Positions 19,322-60,647 of a DNA stretch of 64,000 nt are shown piece after piece. The translations under genes were made by a program, and so were the position numbers. How positions within the stretch are numbered: the first letter of the stretch is position 1; each line of letters begins with the position of its first letter. The stretch is from Verrucomicrobiia bacterium (GTDB lineage: Bacteria; Verrucomicrobiota; Verrucomicrobiia; Palsa-1439). The notes under the pieces were generated by a model. The model did no database searches. It was not told the origin of the DNA and worked only from the letters and a program-made list of their open reading frames with translations. The stretch is taken from NCBI GenBank assembly GCA_049515295.1, contig JBEKUF010000001.1:3625-67624 (forward strand). The letters run 5' to 3'.

Positions 19322-19399
19322 CTGTTTGTCTCCTCCTTCGATCCATTCTCTGTTCCACCTTGTGGCCAACCGGCGACCGCGCCCTCCCCCGGTGCCTCG

Positions 19400-23025: not shown

Positions 23026-23192
23026 CAATAACACCTGTAGTACACGTAGACGAGGGACAAAATCGTCCGCCCGCGTCAGCGCGTACGACGCGTGCCTCCT
23101 CCAAACAGGTTCCCCACACCACAGATTATACAAGGATTGCCCATAGTGTAAAGCACTTATTTGATCGGTTGGACAATTTTGTCCGGCAGGCC

Positions 23193-25304: not shown

Positions 25305-25354
25305 ACCGCTACTCGATCGCGCCGCTTCGCCTGTGCACGAGCATTCTCCGTGGG

Positions 25355-25933
25355 CTAATGGTCCACAGTCCCCAGTCGCCGCAAGGGTAGGAACGCACAC
25401 ACGTGTCGGCGGTACTCTTCATATTCCGTCCCAAACTTCGCGATCATCTCCCGTTCCTCCCGCCGCCAACGAGCCAGCAGTAGCGGGATATACACTCCCA
25501 CCGATAGCACCATTGTCCACCAGGCATTTCCCACCAGCGGAATCGAAATCACCTCCAGCATAATGGCCGAATAGGCCGGGTGACGCATGTACCGGTAAAC
25601 TCCTTCACGAATCAACTGATGATCCCCCCGAATTTCCAGATTCAGACTCCAATACCGTCCCAAAGTCCGGATCGCCACGAGCCGAAGTGCCAATGATCCC
25701 GCAAACATGACCAGCCCAAGGATGACCAGCGGGATATTTACTGGCCGTCGCAGAAGGAAATACTCCAGACCGGTTGCCAAATAGATCAGCGAGTGCAGGA
25801 TGTGAAACGCCACATACGACCACAGCATCTTCACCTCGCCACGCTTGGCTTGGACGCTGAAACGGCGCTCATACAAGCGTTCGGCAACGGCGAAGACCAG
25901 AAAACCGAATAGAAACCAACCGAATTTCCCCAC
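25355..25933 (-). CDS. isoprenylcysteine carboxyl methyltransferase (ICMT)/phospholipid-methyltransferase family membrane protein
   Basis: Five-TM, 192 aa. C-terminal signature …YRYMRHPAY…E…EE… matches PF04140/PF04191. Probable GTG start. Confidence 0.65.
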   Translation of the reverse strand: MGKFGWFLFGFLVFAVAERLYERRFSVQAKRGEVKMLWSYVAFHILHSLIYLATGLEYFLLRRPVNIPLVILGLVMFAGSLALRLVAIRTLGRYWSLNLEIRGDHQLIREGVYRYMRHPAYSAIMLEVISIPLVGNAWWTMVLSVGVYIPLLLARWRREEREMIAKFGTEYEEYRRHVCAFLPLRRLGTVDH

Positions 25934-34965: not shown

Positions 34966-35859
34966 TCACACCAACGGCAACTGCTCGTCGCCGTCGGGCA
35001 CGGTGCAGGCGGCGATGGATGGATAACGCTCCCGCAACGCGACGGGCGCGCGGATGGCGACCGTGAGCGCCAGGCGCGCTTTCAGTTGCAGCGCATTGGA
35101 GAACGCCTTGGCGTCCTTGTGATTGTTGAATACGGCGAACGTCTTCTTCGTGCGCGCCGCGATCTTCGCGATGTGCCCGAGGAGATCGTCCAACTCCGTC
35201 GCCGAGTACAAGTAATCGTATCGTCCGCCATACGCGTCTTGTTCTTCCCGGAACCAGTTCTTCGCGTTGCGCCCATGCAGACGGAAGTAGCCGACATCCG
35301 CGGTCGCATGCGCGGTCGGCGCGATGCAATGACCCAACACGGGCTGATCGATATTGCAAAACGCGATCCGTCGCTCGCGGAGGAATGTGAACGTGTCATC
35401 CACCAGCCACGAGTCGTGTCGGACTTCGACCGCTACCGGCCACTCGGCAAACGCGTCGGCGACGGCCCGAAGCCAGTCGCGGTTTCGCGGGTCGTTGCGG
35501 AACGACCAGGGGAATTGGAACAGCAGCGCGTCGAGCCGGCCAGCTTCCCGCAACGGCTCCACACCGGTGGTGAACAGGTCGAACTCGGCTCTTGACCAAG
35601 CCGACGAACGTTCATGCGTAAACCGTTGCCATGCCTTGGCCAGGAACCGGAATCGCGGTTGCTGATCGACGGCCCGGACCCAGCTTTCCGTGGCCCGGGC
35701 GGTCGGGGGACGATAAAATGAGCTGTCGACTTCCACGCAGTCGAGGTACCGGGCAATCGTGCCGAGCCGATTCCCTGCGTTACCGCGCGGATAAACCAGG
35801 TTCTCCCAGTCGGGATAACTCCAACCCGCAGTGCCGACGAGTATGGGGCCGCTGGCCAT
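34966..35859 (-). CDS. DUF72 (YecE-like) family protein
   Basis: …GTAGWSYPDW… N-terminus and overall TIM-barrel-like DUF72 pattern. Confidence 0.65.
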   Translation of the reverse strand: MASGPILVGTAGWSYPDWENLVYPRGNAGNRLGTIARYLDCVEVDSSFYRPPTARATESWVRAVDQQPRFRFLAKAWQRFTHERSSAWSRAEFDLFTTGVEPLREAGRLDALLFQFPWSFRNDPRNRDWLRAVADAFAEWPVAVEVRHDSWLVDDTFTFLRERRIAFCNIDQPVLGHCIAPTAHATADVGYFRLHGRNAKNWFREEQDAYGGRYDYLYSATELDDLLGHIAKIAARTKKTFAVFNNHKDAKAFSNALQLKARLALTVAIRAPVALRERYPSIAACTVPDGDEQLPLV

Positions 35860-35976: not shown

Positions 35977-37713
35977 GTCGCACTGATGAGTCCCAAGAAA
36001 TCAGCATCCGTTTCCGCGGCACGCCAATCGCGACAGCCAGAAGCTGAAGCGGGTCCGAAAACCAGGCTGTGGCCAGCGGCCGGGTTCCTCACTCATGTAG
36101 CCGTCGCCTTCGTGCTCGGCGCCATCGTGTTGTTCACGTACTGCAACACGTTGTACAACACGGGGTTCGCGCTGGATAACAAGTTCATCATTCTCGAAGA
36201 TCCGCGCCTGCGCGAGGCCAACCAGCACAACCTCCACCTTGTTTTTACCCAGGACTATTGGTGGCCCAAAGCCGTGAGCGGATTGTATCGCCCGTTGACA
36301 ACGTTGTCGTATCTGTTCAACTACAGCACCCTCGGCAACGGCGCCCACGCCGCCGGCTATCACTGGGTCAACTTCGTCCTGCACTGGGCCAACGCGGTAC
36401 TGGTCTACTTTGCGGTGTTGGCGCTGATGAAGCATGTTTGGCCGGCATTTTTCGTGGCGGCGTTATTCGGCACTCATCCCGTCGCCACCGAGTCGGTGGC
36501 CAACATCGTCGGACGCGCCGACTTGTTCGCCACGATGTGGGTGTTGGTTGGCTTCCTCTGTTATGCCAAGAGCGCTGCCGCCGAGAGCAAGACCGAAACG
36601 GAGACCAAACCGCTGGTTGTGGCGGGAGCAATTTCCGCGCTGCTGGTGGCGTTCATCGTGATCAGTTGGAAACACCCGACACTGCTGCCCGCCAACGTGC
36701 AAAGCGGCTTGGTTGTCTCCATGGCGCTCGTCGCGCTCGGCGTAAGCACCGTGGCGTTGGCCTGCCTCGCCGGCGGCTGGAGGAAAATGCTGCCGCTGAC
36801 GATCTTGATGCTGACGACCGCCGTCAGCGTCTTCTGCAAGGAATCGGGTGTGGTGGTGTTCGGCGTGATCATGCTCTACGACTTTTTGTACCGCCTGCGC
36901 CGCAAACAACCCAACTGGCTGGCCAACCTCGTGTCGAATTTCTCGGAGTTCGCCCTCAAAGGTTACGTGGTCCTGGTCGCGCCCGTTCTGACGATGTTCT
37001 ACGTCCGCAGCCAGGTTTTTGGGCAACTGCGCCCGCCGGAGTTGCCCTGGGTGGACAACCCGTTGGCCATGCCGGGTGTGAGCTTCCTGACCGCGCGCAT
37101 CACGGCCATCAAGGTCATTGGCAAATACTTCTGGCTGCTCCTCTGGCCGCGACAGTTGTCCTGCGACTATTCCTACAATCAAATCCCCATCGTGACCTGG
37201 CATTTCAACACGTGGGAAGACTGGAAAGCCATCGTCGCCCTGGTGTCCATCGTGATCGTGCTGCTCGTCACGATCCGCAGTTATCACCGCAACAAGCCGC
37301 TGTTCTTCTTCGTGTTCTTTTTCTTCGGCACGCTGCTGCCTTCATCCAACTTGATCCCCAATCCAACGTTTGGTGGCCAGTCGCTGTTCGACAAGATCTC
37401 GTGGTGCATCGGCAGCATCATGGCCGAACGGTTTCTGTACCTGCCATTGATCGGGTTCGCCGGCTGCGCGGTGCTGGCGGTCTATGCGATCTGTCGTCGT
37501 CTGGTTCCGCACCTGGATGTCTCACCGTGGGCGCAACGCATCTGGTTGCAGGTGGTGGCGCGTACGGCCCTGAGCTTGGTCGTGGTTGCCTACGGCGTGC
37601 GGGCCTTTAACCGGAACGAGGATTGGAAGGATGATGAAACGCTGTGGACCAAAGCTGTCGGGACACGTCTCGACGGCCTTGGTCCACAGGTCCCTTGCGT
37701 TCGCGCTCTATGA
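35977..37713 (+). CDS. TMTC-like membrane protein, N-terminal DUF1736 membrane part (upstream fragment of a frameshifted TMTC-like gene)
   Basis: AAGGAGG lies upstream of ATG 35977. Many TM helices. …FNRNEDWKDDETLW… is the DUF1736 region. The ORF ends at TGA 37711 inside an overlap with the downstream TPR ORF. Confidence 0.55.
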   Translation, partial: VALMSPKKSASVSAARQSRQPEAEAGPKTRLWPAAGFLTHVAVAFVLGAIVLFTYCNTLYNTGFALDNKFIILEDPRLREANQHNLHLVFTQDYWWPKAVSGLYRPLTTLSYLFNYSTLGNGAHAAGYHWVNFVLHWANAVLVYFAVLALMKHVWPAFFVAALFGTHPVATESVANIVGRADLFATMWVLVGFLCYAKSAAAESKTETETKPLVVAGAISALLVAFIVISWKHPTLLPANVQSGLVVSMALVALGVSTVALACLAGGWRKMLPLTILMLTTAVSVFCKESGVVVFGVIMLYDFLYRLRRKQPNWLANLVSNFSEFALKGYVVLVAPVLTMFYVRSQVFGQLRPPELPWVDNPLAMPGVSFLTARITAIKVIGKYFWLLLWPRQLSCDYSYNQIPIVTWHFNTWEDWKAIVALVSIVIVLLVTIRSYHRNKPLFFFVFFFFGTLLPSSNLIPNPTFGGQSLFDKISWCIGSIMAERFLYLPLIGFAGCAVLAVYAICRRLVPHLDVSPWAQRIWLQVVARTALSLVVVAYGVRAFNRNEDWKDDETLWTKAVGTRLDGLGPQVPCVRAL

Positions 37714-38521
37714 GAAAGATCCCGAGGGAAAGAATATCGATCGCATCATCGAAGAAGGCGAAAAAGCCCGTCAGGTGACGGACCAGACGCAGATCGTCCT
37801 GCTCCATCTCGGTGCCTACTATCGCATCAAGGGCGACACCTACGCCCAACGCGCGACCGACGGAGTCACTCTGCTGCCGTCGCCGCAAAGCATGCCGTGG
37901 TATCAGAAGTCGGTGGAAGCGCTGTCGAAAGCCGTGCCCCTCGACAAGCAATTCAATGAGGATAACCACCGGAAAGAGTTGGCGCGCGGCCGCAATCCAA
38001 ACGAAATCCCGGACATCGGCAACCACGAAATCTATTGGAATCTCGGCATCTCCTACATGCGTCTGTCGGAATACCAAAAGGCACTGGATGCCTATTTGTA
38101 CATGCGCCATCTTTCGCCCACGAATCCGGACGCGTACCTGAGCATCGCTTCCGTATATCTCGCGACCGGCCATCCCGATGAGGCCGGTATTTCGCTGCTG
38201 GAAGCTTTGTTGTTGGATGGCAGCCGCACCCAGGCGTTGCGGCTGCTGGCGGATATCTACCGGCAAATTGACAAGGAAGGTTGCGCCGTCATCATGAATC
38301 AGGGAGAACCCCGCCTGAATTTGGACTGCGCCATTGTCCGCAATCATATCTGCTCGGCCTACTACGGATTGATTCAAGCTTTCCTTGAAACCAAGGACCA
38401 GGATTTGCATCGAAGAGCGGTGGAAGCAGAGCAAAACGCCGAGCACAACTACCGTTGCCCCGCCGATGCCTTCAAAAAGCTGTTCCCCGACCAACCGACT
38501 ACTGTGAGTTCGACCAAATGA
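37586..38521 (+). CDS. TPR-repeat domain (downstream, different-frame part of the frameshifted TMTC-like gene)
   Basis: Different reading frame from the DUF1736 ORF, with a 128-nt overlap. Several TPR units (…YWNLGISYMRLSEYQKALDAYLYM…). Sequence reads continuously across a putative +1 shift near 37660. Confidence 0.5.
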   Translation: MPTACGPLTGTRIGRMMKRCGPKLSGHVSTALVHRSLAFALYEKDPEGKNIDRIIEEGEKARQVTDQTQIVLLHLGAYYRIKGDTYAQRATDGVTLLPSPQSMPWYQKSVEALSKAVPLDKQFNEDNHRKELARGRNPNEIPDIGNHEIYWNLGISYMRLSEYQKALDAYLYMRHLSPTNPDAYLSIASVYLATGHPDEAGISLLEALLLDGSRTQALRLLADIYRQIDKEGCAVIMNQGEPRLNLDCAIVRNHICSAYYGLIQAFLETKDQDLHRRAVEAEQNAEHNYRCPADAFKKLFPDQPTTVSSTK

Positions 38522-39873
38522 CCAGAATTCTCCACGGCCTGGCGGCCGCTTCGATGATCTTATCCACCGTACGCCTGATCCAGGCAGCGCCCACCAACGC
38601 GATCCCCGAGACCTTGAGACTGCAGGATTGTATTGACCTCGCCCTCCGTCAAAACCCAACCATCCTCAAAGCCAGGGAAGAAATCCGCCGCACCCACGGG
38701 ATCATTATCGAAACCCGCGCCCAGGCGATCCCACAAATCACCGCCTCGGGCAGCTATCAGCAGGTCGCCAAGAGCACGATCGACTCAATTCCAGTCCCCG
38801 GGTTCCCCAGCGTCTTTGATAACCAGGAACAACCTTGGACCGCACAAATCCAGATCTCTCAGCTTGTCTACGCCGGCGGGCGCGTCAGCGCCGCGCTTCG
38901 CGCCGCGAATTTGTCCGATCAGGTGGCCGCCTTGGGGTTCCAAAGCACCGTGGCCGATACCGTCTTGGAAGTGCGAAAGGATTTCTACCAAATCCTGCTC
39001 GACACAGCGCTGGTCGAGGTTCGCCAACAATCGGTAACGCTCCTGGAAGAACAACTTCGCGACGCACAGTCCCGATTCGATGTCGGGTCCGTTCCACGCT
39101 TCAACGTCCTGCGGGCTGAAGTCGAATTGGAAAACGCCAAACCTCCGCTCATTCGCGCCCAGAACGACCTCCGCCTTTCGAAAGAGGCACTCGTGAAAGT
39201 TCTGGCTCTCGACAGCTCGAGCCGGACCAATGCGTTCACTCCTATCAATTTCGAGGGCAAACTCGTTTATGAACACCGTGATTGGGATCTGCCGGCCGCG
39301 CTGCAACAGGCTCTTCAACTCCGACCCGAATTACAGGCGTCGGAACGCAACATCAACGTTGCCAAAGCCAACGTTCAAGTCGCCTCCTCCGGCTATAAAC
39401 CCCAGGCATCCGTGTTTGGAAATTATGGGTGGCATGACTATGCGTTCACTAACCGGCTGGAAGACACCCGTGAGGGCTGGATCTTGGGCGCCAACGTGAG
39501 TTGGGCGTTGTTCGACGGCATGCTCACGCGCGGAAAAGTCACCGAGGCCCGCGCGCAATTGCAGGAGGCCAACCTCGATTACGCCGACACGCGCCGCCAG
39601 GTGGAACTGGAAGTCCGCCAGGCGTACTCCGACTACCTGCAAACGCTTGAATTGATTGAAGCACAGAAGAAAACCGTGGAGGAAGCCGAGGAAAGCCTGC
39701 GGTTGGCGGAAGCGCGCTTCCGCGCCGGCACGGGCACGCAGCTCGATGTTCTCAGCGCCCAGACCGCGCTCACCGAAGCCCGGTCCAACGAGATCCAGGC
39801 GCTCCACGACTACAACGTCGCCATCGCCACGCTCGAACGCGTCACCGGTATGACCGTGCGTATGGCCGATTGA
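38518..39873 (+). CDS. TolC-family outer-membrane efflux channel
   Basis: Signal peptide. Two TolC repeats with coiled-coil stretches (…DLALRQNPTILKAREEIRR…, …LDYADTRRQVELEVRQAY…). ATGA overlap with the TPR ORF. Confidence 0.8.
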   Translation: MTRILHGLAAASMILSTVRLIQAAPTNAIPETLRLQDCIDLALRQNPTILKAREEIRRTHGIIIETRAQAIPQITASGSYQQVAKSTIDSIPVPGFPSVFDNQEQPWTAQIQISQLVYAGGRVSAALRAANLSDQVAALGFQSTVADTVLEVRKDFYQILLDTALVEVRQQSVTLLEEQLRDAQSRFDVGSVPRFNVLRAEVELENAKPPLIRAQNDLRLSKEALVKVLALDSSSRTNAFTPINFEGKLVYEHRDWDLPAALQQALQLRPELQASERNINVAKANVQVASSGYKPQASVFGNYGWHDYAFTNRLEDTREGWILGANVSWALFDGMLTRGKVTEARAQLQEANLDYADTRRQVELEVRQAYSDYLQTLELIEAQKKTVEEAEESLRLAEARFRAGTGTQLDVLSAQTALTEARSNEIQALHDYNVAIATLERVTGMTVRMAD

Positions 39874-39876
39874 GCC

Positions 39877-40497
39877 ATGCCATGGGAAACCTTCGCGCCG
39901 TTGCGCCAGATCCCCTTTATCACCCACGCGTTCACCCTCCGCACGAGCGACGACACCAAGGCGGATGATTTTGAAGTCCGCGCCCTGAATTCGCTCGGTT
40001 TCTCCTCCAGCCAATTTGCTTCGGCGGAACAGACACACGGAAACGGCGTGGCCGCTGTGTTCGAAACCACGGGCGAGCGCGTGCCGATGGTCGATGCGCT
40101 GGTGACGGCCACGAAAAACCTGCCGCTGGTGATTCGCTGCGCCGATTGCGCCGCGGTGTTTATCGTGGACCAACGGACTCCGGCCATCGCTCTGGTTCAC
40201 TCCGGGAAAAAAGGTACGCTCGCCAATATTGTCAGAAATACCCTGATCGTAATGACGCAACGGTTTGGCACGGACCCGCGTGATTGCCGGGCGTTAATCA
40301 GCCCGTCGATCGGCCCGTGTCACTACGAAATCGACATCTGGGGCGGTATCGAAGGGCAACTTCGCGAGGCGGGCGTGTGCGACGTCCACAATCCGCGGGT
40401 CTGCACCGCCTGCCATCTCGACCGATACTTTTCGTATCGCGCCGAGAAAGGCAGCACCGGACGGATGCTGGCCATCCTGGCATTGAAATCGCCATGA
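39877..40497 (+). CDS. pgeF: PgeF/YfiH (DUF152, laccase-domain) peptidoglycan-editing/purine nucleoside enzyme family
   Basis: …QTHGNGV… and Cys/His cluster (…IRCADCAAVF…HSGKKG…CTACH…) of the Cu-oxidase_4 family. Confidence 0.7.
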   Translation: MPWETFAPLRQIPFITHAFTLRTSDDTKADDFEVRALNSLGFSSSQFASAEQTHGNGVAAVFETTGERVPMVDALVTATKNLPLVIRCADCAAVFIVDQRTPAIALVHSGKKGTLANIVRNTLIVMTQRFGTDPRDCRALISPSIGPCHYEIDIWGGIEGQLREAGVCDVHNPRVCTACHLDRYFSYRAEKGSTGRMLAILALKSP

Positions 40498-41210
40498 GCC
40501 TGCTCGTCCCGCCCCGACGGTTCGATCCTGCCGTCCCCGAAATGATGGACCGCCGAGGGAACGACCCCGCACTGCTTCGCGCCGATCTCCATGTGCTGGG
40601 AAACTTCAACCGCTTTCTGGGCGGCCATCGCATCGCGCTGGGGTACCTGGATGAACTTTTGGAAAAGCTGCCGACGAGTCGCGTCTCGGTCTTGGACCTG
40701 GCTACTGGCGGCGCGGACGTGCCGCGAATCATCGCACAGTGGGCGCGCCAGCGGGGTGTCCGCGTCGAGATCACCGCGGTGGATGGGAATCCCGAGATTC
40801 TGCGGATTGCGCGCGAACAATGCGCTTCCTGGCCAGAGATTCGAATCGAACAGCACGACCTGCTGACGTTGCCCTACCCAGTGGCCAGCTTTGACGTCGT
40901 TCTCTGTTCGCTCACGCTGCACCACTTCTCCGCGCCCAATGTAGTTGCAATCCTGCGACGCATCCATGATATTGCGCGGGTTGGTTACATCATCAACGAT
41001 CTGCGGAGGAATCGAGTCGCGATCGGGCTGAGCAAGCTCATGGCGCGCACGGTCATCAGCAATCCCATTGCGCGTTTCGACGCCCCAGCTTCCTGTGAAC
41101 GCGCCTTCAGCGTCGCCGAACTGCGCGTGATGGCCGTGCAGGCTGGTCTGGGCAACTTTGTGATCCGCCGACACGGGTTCTTTCGCATGGCGATTGCGGG
41201 ACGCAAATGA
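40494..41210 (+). CDS. class I SAM-dependent methyltransferase
   Basis: Motif I VLDLATGGADV, motif post-I/II …ITAVDGNPEIL…, Methyltransf_11/25-like. ATGA overlap with pgeF. Confidence 0.7.
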   Translation: MSLLVPPRRFDPAVPEMMDRRGNDPALLRADLHVLGNFNRFLGGHRIALGYLDELLEKLPTSRVSVLDLATGGADVPRIIAQWARQRGVRVEITAVDGNPEILRIAREQCASWPEIRIEQHDLLTLPYPVASFDVVLCSLTLHHFSAPNVVAILRRIHDIARVGYIINDLRRNRVAIGLSKLMARTVISNPIARFDAPASCERAFSVAELRVMAVQAGLGNFVIRRHGFFRMAIAGRK

Positions 41211-41656
41211 GCGTGCGCACCGAGAGTTCCATCGTCATCAAGGCCCCGCTGGCCAGGGTTTTCCAGGATACGTCCAATTTGCTTCTCTGGCCAAAGGTGC
41301 TTCCCCACTATCGCTGGATCCGCGTTCTGAACGTGGGGGATGATGGCCTCGTTGTGAAAATGGGGGCGTGCCGCGGCTGGCTGCCCATTCGATGGACCTG
41401 TCGATTTCAGGTCGACCCGAGCAGGCCGGAACTGCACTTTGAGCATCTCAAGGCGTTCACGCGCGGGATGAAGGTCCGATGGACGTACACCGCCACCCCC
41501 GACGGCGTGTTGGTCAGCATCACTCATGAACTCAATCGACCTTCCGCGTTTGGACGCTGGTTCGCGCAGCGTGTGCTGAGTGAAATGTTCATTCAGCCAA
41601 TTGCCGCTCGCACGTTGTCCCATTTCAAGAAGTACCTGGAACAGAACGAGGGCTGA
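41207..41656 (+). CDS. SRPBCC (Bet v1/START, polyketide cyclase/dehydrase-like) protein
   Basis: 149 aa, …VIKAPLARVFQDTSNLLLWPK… start and helix-grip pattern. Overlaps the methyltransferase by 4 nt. Confidence 0.6.
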   Translation: MSVRTESSIVIKAPLARVFQDTSNLLLWPKVLPHYRWIRVLNVGDDGLVVKMGACRGWLPIRWTCRFQVDPSRPELHFEHLKAFTRGMKVRWTYTATPDGVLVSITHELNRPSAFGRWFAQRVLSEMFIQPIAARTLSHFKKYLEQNEG

Positions 41657-41669
41657 GCACTCCCAATGT

Positions 41670-42932
41670 ATGGAAGCCATGTCACCACGCGTGGTCGTCA
41701 CCGGCATCGGGGCAATAACGGCCATCGGCAGCGGCCGAGACGGGCTGTGGCGCGGAATTTTGCGCGGCAAGTCCGGCATCCGCCCTATCGCCCACTTCGA
41801 TCCGTCACCGTTTGACTCCCAAATCGCCGGTGAGGTGACCGATTTCGACCCGTTGGCGTATTTCCCGGCGCGGCGTGTGAAACGCCTCGACCGGTTCGCC
41901 CAGTTCGCCCTCGTAGCCGCGAAAATGGCCCTCGACGATTCGAACGAGTGTGGCCGGCCGTTGTTCACGGAACGGCCTCCCCTCCCGCAGATCGGCGTCT
42001 GCACCGGCACGGCGTTGGGCGGTGTGGCGCTGGCCGAGCACCAACATGAGTTATTCATGCGTCAGGGCATCCGTGCGGTGAATCCGGCACTGGCATTTCT
42101 CGTGTTCGGCGGCTCCGGCGGTTCCCATGTCGCAATCGAACTTGGCTTCACCGGACCGGGTCACACGAATTCGAACAGTTGCGGCTCCGGTGCGATCGCG
42201 CTGGGAGAAGCGTTCCGCTTGATCCGGGGAGGTCAGGCACTGGCGATGGTAGCCGGCGCGGCCGAAGCGCCGTTGGCGCCGTTGACGTTTGGCGCGTTTG
42301 ACGTGCTCCACGCCCTGAGCCGGAACAACGCCGACCCGGCCGGGGCCTGTCGGCCATTTGATGCGACGCGCGACGGATTCGTTATGGGTGAAGGAGCGGC
42401 GATGTTCATACTCGAAGAGCGCCGCCATGCCCTCTTGCGCGGAGCGCATATCTATGCCGAGATCCTCGGCTACGCTTCCAACAATGACGCCTATCACATG
42501 CTGGCGCCCCGCCCCGACGCGTCCTGCGCGGCGCGCTGCATCCGCAACGCGCTGGCAGACGCGCGTGTTTCTCCGGCGGACATCGATTACATCAATGCCC
42601 ACGCCACGGGCACGGCACTCGGGGATGCCGCGGAAACGCTCGCCATCAAACAGGTGTTCGGCGAGCGCGCCCATCGGATCCCCGTCAGTTCCACCAAACC
42701 GTTTCACGCCCACGCGCTGGGCGCGTCGGGCGCGATGGAGATGGCCCTATGCGCCCTGGCGCTGGAGCACGATTACCTGCCGCCGACCCTGAACCTGAGG
42801 CAGCCCGATCCCGAGTGTGATCTGGATTACATTCCCAACGAAGGTCGGCGGGCACGGGTGAACCACGTTGTATCGAACAGCTTCGGCTTTGGCGGCATCA
42901 ATGCCAGCCTTGTTCTTGGCCGTCATGAGTGA
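41670..42932 (+). CDS. beta-ketoacyl synthase, FabF-like
   Basis: VVVTGIGAITAIG; Cys region TNSNSCGSGAIALGEA; His-His pair (YINAHATGT, HAHALGASG); C-terminal SNSFGFGGINASLVL. Confidence 0.8.
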   Translation: MEAMSPRVVVTGIGAITAIGSGRDGLWRGILRGKSGIRPIAHFDPSPFDSQIAGEVTDFDPLAYFPARRVKRLDRFAQFALVAAKMALDDSNECGRPLFTERPPLPQIGVCTGTALGGVALAEHQHELFMRQGIRAVNPALAFLVFGGSGGSHVAIELGFTGPGHTNSNSCGSGAIALGEAFRLIRGGQALAMVAGAAEAPLAPLTFGAFDVLHALSRNNADPAGACRPFDATRDGFVMGEGAAMFILEERRHALLRGAHIYAEILGYASNNDAYHMLAPRPDASCAARCIRNALADARVSPADIDYINAHATGTALGDAAETLAIKQVFGERAHRIPVSSTKPFHAHALGASGAMEMALCALALEHDYLPPTLNLRQPDPECDLDYIPNEGRRARVNHVVSNSFGFGGINASLVLGRHE

Positions 42933-44031
42933 ATTCGACGTGATCGTGGTCGGTGGCGGGCCGGCCGGCGCGGCGGCGGCCGCGGGTTGTGCGCAACGGG
43001 GATTGCGCGTCGCGCTGTTCGAGCACGCCCGGTTTCCCCGCCATAAGGTCTGTGGTGATGTTCTCAATCCGAATTGCTGGCCGATCTTCGAACGACTCGG
43101 CGTGGCGCGGAGAATCCAGCAGTTGCCACATCACGCGATTGAGGGCGCCTGTTTCACCACAACAGGCCGTCACACTCTCAGTGTCCCTCTGCCGCACACG
43201 ACGGTAGCCATCCGCCGCAGTCTACTGGACGCGGCGTTGCTCGATCACGCCGGGTCGTGTGGAGTGCATGTCATGGAAGGCGAAACGGTCCACGACGTCC
43301 TGACCAACGGACGCGTGCGAACCAGCCACGGGGAATACGTGGCCCGAAATGCCATTATCGGTGCTGACGGACGGCATTCGGTGGTTGCACGCAAAGCCGG
43401 TCTGGCCCGTTTCCGGCGCCGAGGCAACGAACATGTGGCGTTCCAATCGCATTTCCGGGCACCGACGACGCTGGATCACCGCGTGCAATTACACCTGTAC
43501 CGGGGCGGCTACTGCGGTCTGGTGCGCGTGGACACGGAGCGCGCCAATCTTTGCATCGTGACCGGCCCATGGGCTGCCCAATTCCACCGTGACTGCGAAG
43601 CGCTCTTTGCGCACACCGTCTGGCAGAACCCCCATTTCCGTGAGTTGGGAATTGCTCCCGAACCACTCGAATCTCTGCGAATCGCTCATCCACTCCAGGC
43701 ACCGGCCTGCCGTGCAACCGGACACGGGGTCTTCCTTGCCGGCGACGCGCTACGGGTGATGGAACCCTTCACGGGTCAGGGGATCTTCTTGGCATTGCGA
43801 ACAGGAGAGCTCGTAGCGGAAGCCATCAGTGATCATTCTCACAGCGAGCGTCTGTATGCGACCGCGGTGGCGAGACTATACCGGCAACGTGGCCGCACCA
43901 ACACATGCCTGCGTCACGCGATGTACCGAGAGCGGGCCGCGCGCGCCATCATCCCGCTCGTGCAACACGCGCCCCAACTGGCACGCTGGCTTGCTGACAA
44001 CGTTCTTGGCGGCGATACGGGATTTCGGTAG
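42925..44031 (+). CDS. FAD-dependent oxidoreductase (geranylgeranyl-reductase/monooxygenase family)
   Basis: N-terminal DVIVVGGGPAGAAAA (GxGxxG), GD motif VFLAGDALRVMEPFTGQGI. Overlaps the ketosynthase by 8 nt. Confidence 0.7.
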   Translation: MSEFDVIVVGGGPAGAAAAAGCAQRGLRVALFEHARFPRHKVCGDVLNPNCWPIFERLGVARRIQQLPHHAIEGACFTTTGRHTLSVPLPHTTVAIRRSLLDAALLDHAGSCGVHVMEGETVHDVLTNGRVRTSHGEYVARNAIIGADGRHSVVARKAGLARFRRRGNEHVAFQSHFRAPTTLDHRVQLHLYRGGYCGLVRVDTERANLCIVTGPWAAQFHRDCEALFAHTVWQNPHFRELGIAPEPLESLRIAHPLQAPACRATGHGVFLAGDALRVMEPFTGQGIFLALRTGELVAEAISDHSHSERLYATAVARLYRQRGRTNTCLRHAMYRERAARAIIPLVQHAPQLARWLADNVLGGDTGFR

Positions 44032-44197: not shown

Positions 44198-44860
44198 CTA
44201 CTCTCGAATCGAATCTCGAATTAAGATCGGCAGACTTAATAATTCGGCGATGTTCTGCAACACGTGGTCGGCAGACGTAAGGTACTCTTTCCCCAAGGTG
44301 GTCTCGATGGCCACGCAGCGCATCCCCGCATTGCGTGCCGCCTCAATGCCGAGCGGCGCATTTTCCACTACAACGCATTCTTCAGGACGCAATCCGAGCT
44401 GGCGGGCCGCCGTAAGAAAGGGATCAGGAAACGGCTTGGCTCGCGGAACCTCATCGCCTGTGATGATGAAATCAAAACGGGCCTGCTGCTCGCCATTGAG
44501 GGAATGCTGCATGTTCTTTAAGGCGCAGGCCGTGACGAGCGCCACTTTGAATCCGCGCCGGCGCAGCTCGCCGATTGTCTCAAATGCTTCGGGATATGTG
44601 GTGACCCGCACAATGCTCCGATAATAGGCGCGCTTCTCCTCTATAAAAGCAGCCTGTCGGGCATCGGGAATCGTGACCCCTGTTTCCTTCATGAGAATCG
44701 GCAGAATCTCTCGGGAGTTCCTCCCTTCGTGCAGAAGCACCGTCAGCTCGCTTACAGGGGAGCCGCCGTGTTTTTCGAACATGTGCTTCCAGGCGAGATA
44801 GTGGTAGTGAAGGGTATCGACGATCACGCCGTCAAGGTCGAATAACACGCCGCGGATCAT
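44198..44860 (-). CDS. HAD-IA family hydrolase (beta-phosphoglucomutase/CbbY-like phosphatase)
   Basis: Motif I LFDLDGVIVDT, motif III lysine in …TGDEVPRAKPFPD…, motif IV …VVVENAPLGIEAARNAGM…. Confidence 0.75.
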   Translation of the reverse strand: MIRGVLFDLDGVIVDTLHYHYLAWKHMFEKHGGSPVSELTVLLHEGRNSREILPILMKETGVTIPDARQAAFIEEKRAYYRSIVRVTTYPEAFETIGELRRRGFKVALVTACALKNMQHSLNGEQQARFDFIITGDEVPRAKPFPDPFLTAARQLGLRPEECVVVENAPLGIEAARNAGMRCVAIETTLGKEYLTSADHVLQNIAELLSLPILIRDSIRE

Positions 44861-45993: not shown

Positions 45994-48222
45994 TTACGGG
46001 CTGGTAACCGTGATCTTCAGCTTGCCGTATTGGCCAACCGGGCCTTCCCCGACGATGTAGAACGTGTTGGTCCCGTCCGTGTTGAAACTGAGTTGCACTC
46101 CTTCGTTGCCGATGTTGTTATCCGCACAGGCCACTTCGGTGAGGCCGTTACTTCCGCAGGAACCCGTCCAAACGTCCAGCATCGTGTAGAAATTGCTCCC
46201 CGCCGTGGATACGGTGAACTGCCTTCCGTTGATACCGACGGTCGGGATGATTTGCCACACGGCATCCGGACCACCGCCGCCGGGACCCCCGCTGCTGCCC
46301 AGGCATATCGTCGAGGGCGGCATATTGTTCGTGTAGGAGTTCAGGCTGACACTTGCCGTGAACACGGCCCTGGCAAATGGGTCGGAACTGTTCGGGAACA
46401 CCACGACCTGGGCCGCTGCGCAGGAGTCGTTAACACCGGGACACGTGGCTTGTAGCATCGGGTCCTGGGAGATTTGCTTCAATGTGATTTTGTTGGTTTC
46501 GGTGCCAGATACGATGGGAATCTTGCCCGTCTGTGCGTTGCATTCCAGCAGCCCGTTTGGCAGATTGTTGGTCACGCCGCTGTTGTTGAATTTCTTGAGG
46601 AGCGCGGTCATGGTATTAATGGCCACGGGATCGTAGCCGGCGCCAACTGTTTGGGCCTGTGAGATCAAGTCGGGCGGAAAATTCGTCGTGACTTTACCGT
46701 TGAGGTATGTCGCATTGCCCGGGAAGGTGCCAAACAACGAGGCGTTAGCCGTGGCAGCGATCAATTCCACCGCCAACTTTTTTCGCGCCACACACAATGC
46801 GGAAGCCCTGAGCTTCGCAGCCTGTGAACCTCCGGGCTCACCAGTCACCCCGGTCGATCTCCAGTAGAAGCTGAGCGCCTCGATAAGGGTGTCGTAGGCG
46901 TCGATCACGTTGTCCGCGTTGCGGTCGGCCGTGGGCAGGACGGTAAATCCGAGGTTCATCACGCTGCCATTGGCCTGAATGGCGTTCAGCAGCGTGGCGC
47001 AATTCGTGTCCGTAAGAGAGAACCCATGGGTAAACCAAAAACGCGAGTTTCGCGTAACCACCTGGGTACTGGCCGTACTAGTCAGGCTGACATCCAGAGC
47101 GGACAGCACCGCCCCGATGGGATTGGCAAAGACGTTCTCACCAATTGAGTCTCCGGCAAACAGCAGGCCCACGGCATTGTTGTCGGCGTCGACAACCGGC
47201 GACCCCGAGTCCCCCGGCAAAGCGAACGCGTTTGTCGCAATGATCGGTTGAACCAGGATCTGATTGGTGAAAATCCCTGTCCCGCAGGTGGTGGTGCAGG
47301 GGGACGGTTCCGAATAGTCAACCGCGATTGTCATATTGATCCCGGCCACGATCCCTTCGGTGCAATCCGTGGTTCGCCCGTTTTTTCTGACGAACTGCCC
47401 GATGAAGGCGGGGACGACATTGTTCACCTGCGGCCCGAGATTCAGAATGTTGGCGGATATGGCCGCATCGGAGCATTGAACGTAGCCGCAGTCAACCTCA
47501 TTGTCTGCGAGGCCGGAAAAATCGATTGGGACGGTTCGGACAAGGGTGCCAATGTTCTGGCCCGGGTTGCAATTGACATCTACCGCACCGGGTTGATACT
47601 CCGGCGTGCCAAAGGGCGCCGTGCTCGGGCATCCATCGACGCCATGACCGACGACGTGGTTGTTGCTAATCCAACCGATCGCGCCGCTGGCGTTATCACG
47701 GACTTTGAACCCGATGGTGCCGCTGGCGCAACAGCCGCCAAACAGGAGCGCATTCCCTCCCGAAACCCCCAGTGGCACGGGGAGAGGGTACGCAATCTGA
47801 GGGTTGTTTGCCCCGCATTGCTCGGCGTGGATCACTCCCACCACCACCACCTGCACCGGAAAACCGTCCAAGCTGCTCGGCAGCAGAGCCGCAGTATTTG
47901 TATTATCGACGAGCACCAGCAGCGACAAGCTTTCGCCTGACCCGCCGATGCCGATCCCTTTCACGCCTTCGGTTGCGAGAAGCGCCGGTTGGTTTGCCGC
48001 TTGCACCGCCATCGCCCTGCCCAAATCCGGGTTGTACGGGAACGGTTGGAGAGATTGTGCGTCGGAAGTTGTCCCGCAGACCCCCAGGACTGCGATGAAC
48101 CCACAGACCAGCAAAGTCAGTACACGAATGCTGTTACGCTCCGACCGCCGCTTGTTGAGAACATCGGGTTGGCGCACGGTCAATTTCTCTTCCCGGTTCC
48201 TACATATGCGCATTCGTTTCAT
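45994..48222 (-). CDS. secreted multidomain protein with trypsin-fold (S1, alpha-lytic-like) serine protease domain
   Basis: Signal peptide (…IRVLTLLVCGFIAVLGVCG). His (…WISNNHVVGHG…) and catalytic-Ser motif ALPGDSGSPVV. About 400-aa C-terminal region of unknown fold. Start uncertain (48222, 48213, or an internal GTG). Confidence 0.65.
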   Translation of the reverse strand: MKRMRICRNREEKLTVRQPDVLNKRRSERNSIRVLTLLVCGFIAVLGVCGTTSDAQSLQPFPYNPDLGRAMAVQAANQPALLATEGVKGIGIGGSGESLSLLVLVDNTNTAALLPSSLDGFPVQVVVVGVIHAEQCGANNPQIAYPLPVPLGVSGGNALLFGGCCASGTIGFKVRDNASGAIGWISNNHVVGHGVDGCPSTAPFGTPEYQPGAVDVNCNPGQNIGTLVRTVPIDFSGLADNEVDCGYVQCSDAAISANILNLGPQVNNVVPAFIGQFVRKNGRTTDCTEGIVAGINMTIAVDYSEPSPCTTTCGTGIFTNQILVQPIIATNAFALPGDSGSPVVDADNNAVGLLFAGDSIGENVFANPIGAVLSALDVSLTSTASTQVVTRNSRFWFTHGFSLTDTNCATLLNAIQANGSVMNLGFTVLPTADRNADNVIDAYDTLIEALSFYWRSTGVTGEPGGSQAAKLRASALCVARKKLAVELIAATANASLFGTFPGNATYLNGKVTTNFPPDLISQAQTVGAGYDPVAINTMTALLKKFNNSGVTNNLPNGLLECNAQTGKIPIVSGTETNKITLKQISQDPMLQATCPGVNDSCAAAQVVVFPNSSDPFARAVFTASVSLNSYTNNMPPSTICLGSSGGPGGGGPDAVWQIIPTVGINGRQFTVSTAGSNFYTMLDVWTGSCGSNGLTEVACADNNIGNEGVQLSFNTDGTNTFYIVGEGPVGQYGKLKITVTSP

Positions 48223-48484
48223 ACAAGCCTCCAAAGATCCACGCATCCGCACCCACCACGAGGCTTCAGCGGCTGCCCGATACATGGTTCCGCTGGCACT
48301 CCCGTGGCGATCAGCCTTTTCACCCCATCGGTCATGCTTCTCACGGCCGTTCCTCTCATAGCTCCAAATCCCTTCACGAAAGAAGAAAGAATCAATCGTA
48401 GTCTGCCTCGTCTTCCAACCGGGCTGTCGACGATGCCGCCCGGTTTTCCGATGGCCGGCGCCAAGCCTTTCCATTGGTCCGGGC

Positions 48485-51400
48485 CTACTTCGCCAACGCC
48501 GTTATTCGCACCGTGTCTTGCTGCGCTGTGTCGCTGACCGATGTGAATGTCAATGTGAAGGTCGCCTGGGTCCCCTTCTTCACGAGGGTCTTGTCCGCGA
48601 ACACTTCCGCTCGAATCATCGTCGAATCCCCCGTGACCGCCCCCGTTTCCATCGCAGCGGTTTCATAGGTTCCCGCCTGGACCGCAGTTGTTATATCCAT
48701 GCTTTCGGACGGGTTCGCGCCAATGTAGTAATTCACCGTCCAGCCCGAGCCCCCGCTGACTTGCGTACTCTGCACTGTGAACTGGTCGGGCCCTGAACCG
48801 TCGTTCTCCACAGCCACATAGTACCTCACGCCATGTCTGCCCTTCTCAATAGCCTTCTGAATAGCAGTGGGCGTCTGCAGATTGATATTTTGAACAATTT
48901 CCTGTCCGACGCCGGTCGTGTTGATGACGCCAAAGCCCACGAACTTCTTCAAATTACTAAACGACTTGCTAATCGCGGCATCCGGCTGACTGAGCGCTCC
49001 CATGCCGCTCAGGGACACCAGTTGGGGCGGCAGAATATTGTTGCTGCTGATAATGGACAAAGTGGCCGACCGCAGCCCTCCAGCCGTGGGAGCAAACTTC
49101 AGACTAACCACGCAGGTGGCGCCGCTTGAAATCGTCGTGCATGGCGTGGAAACAACAAGGAAATCACCCGTATTTCCCGCCGTGGTGGCAATGTTGCTGA
49201 TCACCAGCGGAGCGGTTCCGCAATTCGTGATCGTCACGCTCTGCACCGATCCGGTGACATTCACGGCGACACTGCCAAAGTCTATCGAACTGCTGCTGAG
49301 GCAGATGGCGGGCGCAGGCGCGACGCCGACGCCCTGCAGTGTCACCGTGGTCGGACTGCCCGCCGCGTCATCCGCGATGACAAGATTCGCGTGAAAAGCC
49401 CCTGCGACCGTTGGAGCAAACGCCACGTTCATCGTGCAAGTGCCCTCAACAGAAATGGGCGAGTTCGTACAAAGCGTCGCCACTGAGAAATTCGCCGACC
49501 CCGCTCCGCTGATCGTCACACCGGAAACGGTCAGCGGGATCGAACCGCAATTCGTGAGGGTAACGCTCTGCACGCTGCCGGTTGTCCCGATCACTTGGTT
49601 GGAGAAGGTAATCGACGTGCCGGTACTCAGGCACACCAGTGGAGCCGGTGCCGTCGCGTAGCCGGTCAAGGGGATGCTGCGCGGACTGCCGGTCTGGTTG
49701 TCCGTAAACACCAAATTCGCCACCAACGTCCCCACATCGTTGGTCACCGGTGAAAATGCCACAGTCACGAAGCAATCGGCCCCCGGACCCACGCGTCCGC
49801 CCGTACAGCCGTCATTAACAACCGTGAAGTCAGCCGCGTTCGACCCAGTGATCGACACGCTTTGGATGCTTGCCCCGACAGTCGTACCGTTCATATAGGT
49901 GACGACCTGTTGGGTGCTGACGGTGCCGGCAACCTGGCTGCCGAACGTCAAACTCGTGGGAGAAATCGTGATCGGCACCGTGCCTGGTGGCACGTTCACG
50001 TTGAGCACCATGGTCCCGCCGTCGCCGTCGTTTTGCGGCTCGACCACGATATAATAATCGTTTGACCCATCCGCCGTGAAGTTGACCTGGGCCGGCACGC
50101 TATTGGTGGATACGACCTCCGTCAGCGCCCCACAGTCGCCACGCACATTGAGCGCCTCCGGAAGCACCTTCACTTCCCAGACTGACAATAGCGGGGGCCC
50201 GCCGGAAAACGAACTGCCAAGCGTGCTAATGGTGAACACGGCACCGGGAGTCGGCAATGCAATCTTGAAGAATTCGTCGGCACCACCACGCCCCGCCGTG
50301 GGACTGGGCTGCACGTTTCGGTAGACCGCCTTCGTGAGATTGTTCGTGAACGCAAACGGGAATTGCGTGACGGGCATGGCGGTCTGGCAGGCGTTGTTGG
50401 TCGCCAGATTCGGAACGTCGGACAGCGTATTGGTCGCCGCGTTGTAAATGACCAGGGCAAAATCCTGATTGAGGGTGTTGGACCCGCCCGGCGTCGGCTC
50501 GCCCACATTCGGCACGCCCTGGCCCGCAATATTCGCGGCGCGCACGATGACCTGGAACGGGGCACCGGACGTCACTCCGGGAATGCCGTTGAGCAGTGTG
50601 GACGGATTCAAGAACACACTCTGCAGGTTGTTGATGGTGTCGATTCGGGAATTGGCTGTCGACACGTTCTCGAAAAACTGGTTGCCATTGTAGATGGCGG
50701 CATTCGAGCCGGCTCCGAGGGTCACCTGCAAATTAAGGTCGTTGACGAGTTGATTGCTGGCCGAAGCCGCCGGGTTGCCGGGTGGGTCGAGCCACACCAG
50801 CGTCACGCGGAACGGTAAGCCGTTGCTGGCGATCCGGCCGGTGACTTCGTAAGACTGCCCCGACTGGCTGAAGTACGTCTGCTGCGGCGCGGGATTCGTG
50901 GCGATGAGGGGCGTGTCAATCGCTCGCGGGGAACTCTCATCCCGAATCGCCCGAGGCACCCCGTCAAACATCGTGGCCAAATCCAGTTCGCCCATGCCCT
51001 GGGCAATGGAGGGCAGGGTGTCCAGTGTTCCGGGATACTGAGGACTTTGAATCGGCATATATCGGGCTGCGTTGCACAGGTAGGCCTTGGCCATGGCCGG
51101 GCTGGGCTGCAGCAATGCGCTGCCGAGTTCGTTCGTCAGTCGATGCTGGAAATACCACCACAGAAGCTGGATCGCCCCGGAAACCTCCGGTGCCGCATAA
51201 CTGCTGCCGGAATCGCAGTCGTACTCCCCGCCTATGGGACTTGGAAAACTGTCGGGAAACGACGCACTAGTATTGGTGAAACAAGCGTCAAAGAGCTTGG
51301 GCGGACTACAGTAAAGATTCGTCTCCGAACAGGAAAACACCGCCCCGCCGCCAAGAACCCCATTAGGGTCCTCGTTTATTACAGGTATGATTCCAAGCAC

Positions 51401-59573: not shown

Positions 59574-59703
59574 CGACGGCTGCTCCCCGCAGCGTTTCGC
59601 GCCGCCTGATTCTCCGCCGACCGAAAAAATCGCTTTCTCTTTGGCCCCGGGTTTGGTATCAGTCCCCTCGCCAGGAAGGACCAGCACACGCGCGTCGCTT
59701 CAC

Positions 59704-60630
59704 ATGAATATAACGTTGACTGATACCGAAGTGGCCGACCTCAAAGACGGATTGCGCCGATGCAGTCCCAAAACCATCGAAGCCGCCGTTCGCTACCGCG
59801 AAACGGGCGACCCCAACACCATCCCAACCATCGTGTACGGGATTCTGGAGCGCTATCAGCCCTCCACCGCGCCCGTGAAACTCTCCGCGGCCGATGAAAA
59901 CGCCCGGCTCATCGAAGACCTCGGCCTCGATTCGCTGACCTTGCTCGAAATCGTGCTGTCGATTGAGGAGGTCCTCAAGTTGCACATTGAAAATGAGGAG
60001 CTTCGCGAAATCCGTACGATGGGGAACCTGAACAGGTTTCTCCACGCCAAGATTACCGGCGCCGCCACCGGGGCGCCGTCGAAGGTTTATTCGCGCGAAC
60101 AGATTGCGCTCGTGCTCCCGCAACAGCCGCCGTTCATGTTCCTTGACGAAGCGTCGCTGAACGCCGAGACACTCAAGGCCAGCTATACCGTCAAAGGCAA
60201 CGAGTTCTTCCTCGAAGGCCATTTCAAGGACGACCCCGTTTTCCCCGCCTCGATCGTCTTCGAAGCCCTGGGCCAGGCCGCGTGCCTGTGGGTGCTGGAG
60301 AAAGCACCGGCGCAGATCGGCAAGGAGATCAAGTCCAACCACGTCTATTTTGCGTCGATGGACGGCGCGCACTTTTACCAAAAGACCAGGCCGGGGGATA
60401 AACTCGAGTTCGAGTTGAAGCTGGCGCGGCTTCGCGAGCCGCTGGCCGTTTTCGAGGGAACAGTGACCTCGCAGGGGCGGCGTGTGGCCAAGATCGAACG
60501 TCTCGTGCTCGCGTTTGGCGAACAACTTCTTCCCGAAAACCTGTCGTCATCCGAATCGTCCGCGTCCGACGCCCCCGCGCCGACCCCCGTTCCGGTCACG
60601 CCCAACGGCCCGGACGGTGGCCGGTCCTGA
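59704..60630 (+). CDS. fusion of acyl carrier protein and FabZ-type 3-hydroxyacyl-ACP dehydratase (hot-dog)
   Basis: N-terminal 90 aa carry the ACP helix-II motif LIEDLGLDSLTLLEIVLSIEE (pantetheine Ser in DSL). C-terminal part carries …FLEGHFKDDPVFPASIVFEALGQAAC… (His/Glu FabZ signature) and ends in a Ser/Pro-rich tail. Confidence 0.7.
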   Translation: MNITLTDTEVADLKDGLRRCSPKTIEAAVRYRETGDPNTIPTIVYGILERYQPSTAPVKLSAADENARLIEDLGLDSLTLLEIVLSIEEVLKLHIENEELREIRTMGNLNRFLHAKITGAATGAPSKVYSREQIALVLPQQPPFMFLDEASLNAETLKASYTVKGNEFFLEGHFKDDPVFPASIVFEALGQAACLWVLEKAPAQIGKEIKSNHVYFASMDGAHFYQKTRPGDKLEFELKLARLREPLAVFEGTVTSQGRRVAKIERLVLAFGEQLLPENLSSSESSASDAPAPTPVPVTPNGPDGGRS

Positions 60631-60647
60631 ATTCGCATCGACCCAAC

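Follow-up and report, generated by a model that had tools for sequence, protein, structure and literature searches.

A 64-kb stretch of DNA with ~60% G+C from a Verrucomicrobiia bacterium, referred to at its full length as the window, contains an operon in which genes for a TMTC-like membrane protein, a TolC-family channel and a PgeF-like protein are followed by those for an S-adenosylmethionine (SAM)-dependent methyltransferase (MT), an SRPBCC protein with an aromatase/cyclase (ARO/CYC)-like fold, a FabF-like beta-ketoacyl synthase (KS) and a FAD-dependent oxidoreductase (FAD in gene orders, otherwise the flavoprotein). This arrangement raises the question of what the last four enzymes may produce together. 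Our results show that they form a cassette that recurs across phyla, and that its SRPBCC-KS pair was never found beside the MT together with a type III polyketide synthase (T3PKS), an enzyme that accompanies relatives of the same MT in other loci. We propose, with some reserve, that the KS and the cyclase-like SRPBCC protein may replace the T3PKS to build a phenolic lipid, which the MT and the flavoprotein then tailor.

In the known pathway, a T3PKS extends a fatty acyl starter by three malonyl units and cyclises the chain to a 5-alkylresorcinol, which HidB- and HidA-type enzymes decorate. The corresponding gene set, hidABC, encodes a methyltransferase, an oxidoreductase and a T3PKS and accounts for hierridin B formation in picocyanobacteria, with the same arrangement reported from 58 strains of Planctomycetota (PMC10896814, PMC8086630). 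In the hierridin scheme, the HidB step introduces an extra ring oxygen, and the Mtr and Fdo proteins of Gimesia maris, when produced in C. glutamicum, add one methyl group, probably on carbon, to T3PKS-made alkylresorcinols. The operon of the window comprises the following genes:

35986-38521 (+): gene 1, TMTC-like multi-pass membrane protein with C-terminal TPR (PF08409 TMTC_DUF1736, 6e-9; TPR_1/2/8)
38518-39873 (+): TolC-family outer-membrane channel (PF02321 OEP, two repeats, 7e-74)
39877-40497 (+): short PgeF/YfiH-family (DUF152, 'Cu-oxidase_4') enzyme of 206 aa (PF02578, 1e-45)
40494-41210 (+): SAM-dependent MT of the HidA/Mtr family (NCBIfam NF004851, PRK06202-like, 1e-39)
41207-41656 (+): SRPBCC protein with an ARO/CYC-like fold (PF10604, 4e-9)
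41670-42932 (+): FabF-like KS (TIGR03150, 482.8 vs. an equivalog cut-off of 493.75)
42925-44031 (+): FAD-dependent oxidoreductase of the HidB/Fdo family, geranylgeranyl-reductase superfamily (PF01494, 5e-22; TIGR02032, 135.1 vs. 158.8)

Recurrence of the cassette and its partner genes

The MT family has 2323 representatives (50% identity) at E<1e-10. A scan anchored on the MT, with one genome per GTDB species, yielded 80 loci from many phyla (loci of related genomes are given as L-numbers), each covering 10 kb on either side of the anchor, onto which the window proteins were mapped by tblastn. Outside the Verrucomicrobia, a gene homologous to that of the window flavoprotein comes after the MT gene at most loci. 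SRPBCC and KS genes accompany the MT in these arrangements:

MT-SRPBCC-KS-FAD: Bacteroidota (L044, L045), Ignavibacteria (L030, and L093, which is truncated by the end of its contig) and an unclassified bacterium (L023)
MT-SRPBCC-KS: Armatimonadota (L054)
MT-FAD-SRPBCC-KS: Thermomicrobiales/Chloroflexota (L029, L032, L058, L079, L085) and Gemmatimonadota (L074, L076)

SRPBCC and KS separate the MT from the flavoprotein in the window, and the latter two are adjacent in the Chloroflexota and Gemmatimonadota loci. The cassette loci do not regularly include an acyl carrier protein (ACP), a second KS or a thioesterase; each encodes a single KS and no pair of KS-alpha and chain-length factor (CLF). 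The idea of an ACP hidden in the gap between the flavoprotein and SRPBCC genes of the Chloroflexota and Gemmatimonadota loci was rejected, as this gap corresponds to a longer C-terminus of the flavoprotein.

SRPBCC-KS lies beside the MT in 20 loci, comprising seven lineages of the window clade and 13 others (L023, L029, L030, L032, L044, L045, L054, L058, L074, L076, L079, L085, L093), and a T3PKS does so in nine, either as T3PKS-MT(-FAD) (L027, L031, L062, L082) or within a larger cluster (L034, L041, L052, L067, L077). Across the 80 MT-anchored loci and the window clade, the two were never found together, and tblastn searches with six T3PKS queries detected no T3PKS in the 64-kb window (E<1e-2) or in any SRPBCC-KS locus (E<1e-3). 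In a neighbour-joining tree, the MT sequences group by taxonomy, with the scaffold partner switching within clades. Given their failure to co-occur and this partner switching, SRPBCC-KS and T3PKS may represent alternative modules that feed one and the same tailoring pair. The sequences, which are visible for 10 kb on each side of the anchor, fit such a module swap, although they do not prove it. A description of the cassette was not found in the literature.

A different combination is present in the larger T3PKS clusters of Nitrospirota and Geomonas (L034, 10001-16338; L041, 10001-16337; L077; Geomonas L052 and L067), which contain the MT, a weakly U32-peptidase-like protein, an ACP, a KS that is 42% identical to that of the window, a B12-binding radical SAM 'lipid biosynthesis' protein and the T3PKS. 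No flavoprotein homologue was detected beside the MT in these clusters, which may constitute an oxygen-independent counterpart of the hid pathway. The U32-like gene (a weak Pfam match of 23.9 bits and no NCBIfam match) provides a lead for an O2-independent stand-in for the flavoprotein.

Properties of the four enzymes

The cassette KS has a Cys-His-His triad and scores just under the FabF equivalog cut-off. It shares 52-60% identity with the cassette KSs of other phyla, but only 44% with a FabF-like paralogue in the window (21736-23133; score of 494.1, above the FabF cut-off) and ~41.6% with E. coli FabF, which is of similar length (an approximate value). Thirteen positions are invariant in the cassette KSs and different in both FabF-type comparators, including an Ala-to-Ser change directly before the catalytic Cys and a Thr-to-His change two residues before the second catalytic His. 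A role as the housekeeping FabF is unlikely in view of the sub-cut-off score, the better FabF-like paralogue and the closer cassette KSs of other phyla, and the gene does not lie in a fab/acpP neighbourhood. Judging from these sequence comparisons, we regard the KS as part of a distinct orthologous group, a cassette-specific clade, rather than as a housekeeping enzyme.

The paralogue gene (21736-23133, minus strand) is flanked on both sides by histidine kinase genes of the GAF/HisKA type (19400-21739 and 23193-25400), where a fatty-acid synthase gene would hardly be expected. Downstream in the same minus-strand region (16378-25400), a sigma-54 response regulator is encoded at 17837-19369 and an outer-membrane transporter of the FadL/TodX type at 16378-17793. 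No ORF with a PP-binding domain was detected in the 35.9-44.0 kb interval; the ACP nearest to the operon, 16 kb away, is part of an ORF that combines a PP-binding region with a FabZ/FabA-like dehydratase (59641-60630). It is followed after 18 nt by a gene for a third ketosynthase, with about equal FabF and FabB scores (59641-61925 for both genes, plus strand).

In both sequence and fold, the SRPBCC protein comes closest to aromatic polyketide enzymes. In a phmmer search against PDB sequences (E<1e-3), its only matches are ARO/CYCs of type II polyketide synthases (PKSs), namely TcmN, BexL and WhiE-ORFVI, with TcmN ARO/CYC as the best hit (5e-5). An AlphaFold (AF2) model based on 47 homologues reached a mean predicted local distance difference test score (pLDDT) of 88.9, and its comparison with the PDB by Foldseek placed the TcmN, ZhuI and WhiE ARO/CYCs on ranks 1-11 (template-modelling scores of 0.77-0.84, with TcmN at 0.84), ahead of generic START, Bet v 1 and PYL proteins. 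The residues W28, P29, H34, Y35, R36, R56, W63, H80, M88, W92 and H107 are invariant across phyla, and equivalents of the TcmN pocket residues (W28, Y35, W65, M91, W95) are kept in the window protein. The protein thus looks like an ARO/CYC-type enzyme with a rearranged polar site, and the invariant His, Tyr and Arg residues of the family appear to be catalytic. In JGI annotation pipelines, the protein is named 'RatA' (Coq10 family), and an NCBI entry from a Verrucomicrobiia MAG matches it with 100% identity. When 8000 candidates were scored with a profile of the cassette SRPBCC proteins, >4800 matches to environmental proteins were obtained at E<=1e-5, a number that may include unrelated SRPBCC proteins.

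The two tailoring enzymes have counterparts in Mtr and Fdo of G. maris, whose genes were taken from a published supplement as machine-read text with frameshift errors and therefore compared by tblastn. The window MT is 28-29% identical to Mtr and shares with it the motifs PE.MD, ILD.A.GG.DV and NDL.R.R. Its homologues beside a T3PKS in the T3PKS-MT(-FAD) loci (L027, L031, L062, L082) show 38-42% identity, and its matches to UbiE/MenG models are weak (1e-8) and far under the cut-offs. The flavoprotein is 26-28% identical to Fdo, with FPR.KVCG and GY.GLVRV in common (FPRHKVCGD and GYCGLVRV in the window protein). By these shared motifs, the two window enzymes are assigned to the HidA and HidB tailoring families.

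The flavoprotein also matches MenJ (5e-23) and geranylgeranyl reductase (4e-39) models, both under their cut-offs, and retains the Cys of the FPRxKxC motif typical of geranylgeranyl reductases (GGRs). Its best sequence matches in the PDB are flavin-dependent halogenases, but a function of this kind was rejected because the protein has neither a WxWxIP motif nor the conserved Lys and contains the GGR-type FPRxKxC motif instead. WxWxIP is absent from all cassette flavoproteins and present in the halogenases of L021 and L022. More generally, FPRxKxC is present and WxWxIP absent in every MT-adjacent flavoprotein with a full-length match, including that of the T3PKS-linked locus L062, whose NCBIfam score profile is the same as that of the window protein. 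In L027, the match is only partial and FPRxKxC was not recovered.

The MTs most closely related to those of the window clade (53-56% identity) are found in Limisphaerales (L018-L022), beside two true halogenases and an aromatic amino-acid lyase, a neighbourhood that points to aromatic substrates. In three of these loci (L019, 1683-7267; L021, 5868-11980; L022, 9923-16757), a WxWxIP halogenase gene follows that of the MT, and the opposite strand encodes, close by, another halogenase and an ammonia-lyase for aromatic amino acids. These loci look like a cluster for a halogenated aromatic product.

The operon in the Verrucomicrobiia

Seven lineages at species level, all from a single Verrucomicrobiia clade (window/L007, L001, L003, L005, L015, L016, L017), retain the gene order TMTC/TPR-TolC-PgeF-MT-SRPBCC-KS-FAD with the overlapping junctions unchanged, and protein identity across them drops to 57% (SRPBCC) and 69% (MT). 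This retention of order and junctions bears out the view of the first-pass annotation, made from the window sequence alone, that the block is a single, translationally coupled unit. The junction distances it gave are exact (gene 1 to TolC, -4; TolC to PgeF, +3; PgeF to MT, -4; MT to SRPBCC, -4; SRPBCC to KS, +13; KS to FAD, -8), each boundary listed above carries a start or stop codon in the window sequence, and Pfam and NCBIfam agree with the family it had proposed for every gene. Its count of eight genes has to be reduced to the seven present in all relatives, since the membrane-protein ORF and the TPR ORF belong to one gene, and its start of gene 1 at position 35977 falls on GTC, which is no start codon. 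Gene 1 probably starts at the ATG at 35986, which is preceded by AGGAGG. The operon is bounded by two genes on the opposite strand:

34966-35859 (-): divergent DUF72 gene, upstream boundary (PF01904; in orthologous position in L001, L003, L005, L007)
44198-44860 (-): convergent gene for a HAD-family hydrolase, downstream boundary (flank differs between relatives)

The gene downstream of the operon encodes a PAS sensor kinase in L001 and L005, and in L003 the HAD gene lies on the plus strand. As the downstream neighbour varies while the order of the seven genes persists, the block appears to be more cohesive than its surroundings. The upstream synteny (DUF72, MutY, RNase HII) is likewise conserved in the window clade. 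Scans of the window for promoters, terminators, Rfam families and tRNAs returned nothing informative. Further downstream (45994-53533, minus strand), a gene for a 1682-aa subtilisin-like (S8) protein with Ig-like repeats adjoins one for an 826-aa trypsin-like protein, and both are syntenic with the operon in relatives.

The apparent split of gene 1 is peculiar to the window. Here, the reading frame is distributed over an ORF that ends at 37713 and a TPR ORF that is open between 37586 and 38521, so that the DUF1736 and TPR domains, which in one intact ORF characterise a TMTC-like GT-C protein, lie in separate frames. In the near-identical strains L007 and L008, gene 1 is a single ORF of 853/872 aa, and in L001, L003 and L005 its product has 747-853 aa. 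Behind the split is a foldback inversion of 39 bp (37651-37689), which shifts the frame and entails a net loss of 2 nt. Between flanks that are 100% identical, the inverted segment reads exactly as the reverse complement of positions 6434-6472 in L007, and the inversion creates a perfect inverted repeat (CTGTGGACC...GGTCCACAG). It arose either by template switching (a foldback mutation) or as a chimera of the assembly.

The TolC protein has a signal-peptide-like N-terminus without a lipobox and scores 178.5 with TIGR01844, under the cut-off of 225.15. The first-pass annotation had described it as a dedicated exit duct, a description that finds no support in the gene content: of the components of a tripartite efflux system, only the outer-membrane factor is present, and neither a membrane-fusion protein (MFP) nor an inner-membrane pump is encoded in the operon or within ~10 kb of it. 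TolC, MFP and ABC genes were found beside the cassette only in L023, where the cassette is followed by genes for a Yip1-domain protein, TolC, an HlyD-type MFP and an ABC ATPase, together providing a full tripartite exporter (7441-11829). The PgeF-like protein passes the Pfam domain threshold and scores 128.8 with TIGR00726, whose cut-off is 141.15. Aligned to YfiH/YlmD structures, it shows the QxHG, DC and HxG motifs but is ~50 residues shorter, with the deletion located between query residues 153 and 171.

The same short PgeF recurs in MarR-TolC-PgeF-MT arrangements of Chthoniobacterales that do not include SRPBCC, KS or flavoprotein genes (L048, L064, L071, L087, L091, L094), for instance at 2-3360 in L087 and 6785-10687 in L091. 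In other Chthoniobacterales, the MT gene is placed between a GT2 gene and panC-nadB. A gene located 5' of the MT gene in many Chthoniobacterales was considered as a divergent PgeF and ruled out, as its product shows no similarity. TolC-PgeF-MT is therefore an old Verrucomicrobial linkage, and a second lineage (L023) has independently set a TolC system beside the cassette. Only in the Verrucomicrobia are TMTC, TolC and PgeF linked to the cassette, which could reflect inherited synteny; a functional tie of the three proteins to the cassette product would be an alternative.

Possible functions and relation to known systems

With regard to ring formation by KS and SRPBCC, the identity of the product and the role of the TolC, PgeF and TMTC proteins, we infer the following scheme, in which the cassette pathway would be a variation on the hidABC/srs-type route to phenolic lipids. 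The KS would use acyl-ACP and malonyl-ACP from fatty-acid synthesis to generate an unreduced beta-polyketo extension, and the SRPBCC protein would fold, cyclise and aromatise the resulting chain. The flavoprotein would then oxidise or hydroxylate the ring and the MT methylate it, as HidB and HidA do, and the methylated product, an alkyl-phenol or alkyl-quinone, would partition into the envelope. In the Verrucomicrobia, where the cassette would be co-transcribed with genes for TolC, the PgeF-like protein and a TMTC-like, periplasm-facing glycosyltransferase, the lipid may be delivered to or act in the outer envelope, perhaps via TolC. Spelled out in full, this amounts to a widespread T3PKS-free, alkylresorcinol-type route, hidden from genome-mining tools and present in at least six phyla, with a homodimeric FabF-type KS working on the ACPs of fatty-acid synthesis, a stand-alone ARO/CYC-fold protein, a HidA/HidB-type finish and, in Verrucomicrobia, a firm coupling to enzymes of the envelope and an outer-membrane channel that would turn the product into an outer-envelope lipid; in this specific form, the proposal is possible and yet rather doubtful.

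Several suggestions made in the first-pass annotation can be viewed in this light. Its notion of KS, SRPBCC, MT and flavoprotein as a small-molecule set without its own ACP or acyltransferase is supported by the recurrence of the cassette across phyla, and its guess of an alkylresorcinol- or quinone-like pathway fits the membership of MT and flavoprotein in the HidA/HidB families. Its aryl-polyene alternative finds no support, as ketoreductase, dehydratase, CLF and ACP genes are missing. The annotation had further held that a match of the KS, flavoprotein and MT to a known pathway would speak against its idea. This applies to one half of the set: MT and flavoprotein match the hidABC type, whereas KS and SRPBCC do not and occupy the place of the T3PKS.

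A number of points weigh against our proposal. A lone FabF-type KS that makes an unreduced polyketone without a CLF is not known. The window KS is, moreover, nearer to FabF than to KS-alpha, its best PDB match being B. subtilis FabF with 393 bits (act KS, 318 bits), and the catalytic Arg69 of TcmN aligns to Phe68 in the window SRPBCC protein, a position that is not conserved in the family. At the genomic level, ~20 loci carry MT-FAD with neither T3PKS nor SRPBCC-KS within the fetched DNA, which indicates that the pair needs no adjacent scaffold gene, and a T3PKS could be encoded elsewhere in the cassette genomes. Part of the gene linkage could reflect inheritance, given the conserved upstream synteny, and the MT may have another substrate in Chthoniobacterales, because TolC-PgeF-MT occurs there without flavoprotein, KS and SRPBCC.

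Some of these points would also suit an accessory role of the two scaffold candidates, with the KS tailoring or elongating an acyl starter, the SRPBCC protein serving as a lipid carrier or chaperone (Coq10/START-like) and a ring-forming enzyme encoded elsewhere, a T3PKS or another, providing the phenolic core for MT and flavoprotein. The FabF-like overall character of the KS, the missing Arg69 equivalent, the 'RatA' (Coq10 family) naming of the SRPBCC protein and the presence of a KS alongside T3PKS, ACP and B12-radical SAM protein in the Nitrospirota and Geomonas loci are all in line with this idea. However, the KS of these T3PKS loci belongs to another clade (42% identity, compared with 52-60% among cassette KSs) and comes with its own ACP and without SRPBCC, no T3PKS lies within 10 kb of any cassette, and among the fold matches of the SRPBCC protein, ARO/CYCs rank above generic START and Bet v 1 proteins, with invariant, seemingly catalytic His, Tyr and Arg residues in the family. 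We consider an accessory role unlikely.

Nor does a housekeeping lipid or quinone unit for envelope maintenance appear probable, in which the MT would be UbiE/MenG-like, the flavoprotein a MenJ/GGR-like side-chain reductase, the SRPBCC protein a quinone-binding Coq10 analogue and the KS a second FabF for envelope fatty acids, and no specialised metabolite would be made. It would accommodate the weak UbiE/MenG matches of the MT, the MenJ and geranylgeranyl reductase matches and GGR-type Cys of the flavoprotein, the KS score almost at the FabF cut-off and the envelope functions of the neighbouring TolC, PgeF and TMTC genes. Yet, the equivalog models all score far under their cut-offs, prenyltransferase and men/mqn genes are absent nearby, and the closest MT relatives outside the operon adjoin halogenases and an aromatic amino-acid lyase. 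In addition, T3PKSs of several phyla have the same MT-FAD pair as their partner, and alkylresorcinols are methylated by its homologues from G. maris.

In a further alternative, TolC, the PgeF-like protein, whose family was at one time described as polyphenol oxidase, and the MT would oxidise, methylate and expel exogenous phenolics of peat or soil, and KS, SRPBCC and flavoprotein would be a later, functionally separate insertion. Such a detoxification and efflux module would agree with the MarR-TolC-PgeF-MT operons of Chthoniobacterales, the deposition of 6t0y, a PDB homologue of the PgeF-like protein, as 'Polyphenol oxidase | YlmD' and the peat, palsa and soil metagenomes named in the source records, but it is very improbable, considering that the laccase activity of the DUF152 family is disputed, that 4-nt overlaps run through the whole block, and that SRPBCC-KS-FAD accompanies the MT in five other phyla in which TolC and PgeF are lacking, which marks the cassette as the primary partnership of the MT.

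If KS and SRPBCC indeed replace the T3PKS, the cassette would represent a new minimal architecture for aromatic polyketide lipids, which is type II-like but has neither a CLF nor an ACP of its own. It would also explain a large environmental family of 'RatA/SRPBCC' proteins and, as we expect, constitute a biosynthetic class that is probably missed by current genome-mining rules. Phenolic lipids alter the properties of membranes and envelopes and serve in some bacteria as alternative electron carriers. The conserved link to TolC, PgeF and TMTC in abundant peat and soil Verrucomicrobia would thus matter for the envelope biology of this uncultured group. If, on the other hand, the cassette has an accessory or housekeeping role, what remains is a conserved operon made up of ordinary enzymes.

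Among known systems, FabF (KAS II) resembles the cassette KS in its triad, overall length and near-equivalog score, but differs in that the KS remains under the cut-off and carries the Ala-to-Ser and Thr-to-His changes at the catalytic Cys and His. The type II PKSs that include TcmN, WhiE-ORFVI and ZhuI provide the best superposition for the SRPBCC protein, which keeps several TcmN pocket residues and is encoded directly 5' of a Cys-His-His KS; unlike these systems, the window operon has no CLF and no ACP, its KS is nearer to FabF than to KS-alpha, and Arg69 is not conserved. A T3PKS-independent route to dialkylresorcinols is provided by DarABC, which also combines a stand-alone ketosynthase with a separate aromatase. 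As DarB is FabH-type (KAS III) and DarA is not an SRPBCC protein, the likeness concerns the route only, and no homology is expected. DarABC is mentioned in PMC3949708 and PMC6836626. In SrsABC of Streptomyces griseus, FtpA of Myxococcus and the mycobacterial polyketide quinone systems, an alkylresorcinol is methylated and then oxidised by a flavoprotein to a membrane alkylquinone. Their logic is similar to that proposed here, again without implying homology, although they are based on T3PKSs. These systems are cited in PMC10896814, and their membrane-located products influence respiration or the properties of the envelope. A close parallel is hidABC, which shares with the window the co-oriented genes for a HidA/Mtr-type MT and a HidB/Fdo-type FPRxKxC flavoprotein, the lack of a dedicated ACP and, presumably, fatty-acid-derived starters. 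In place of its T3PKS, the window has a FabF-like KS and an ARO/CYC-fold SRPBCC protein, to which the Verrucomicrobia add genes for TolC, a PgeF-like and a TMTC-like protein.

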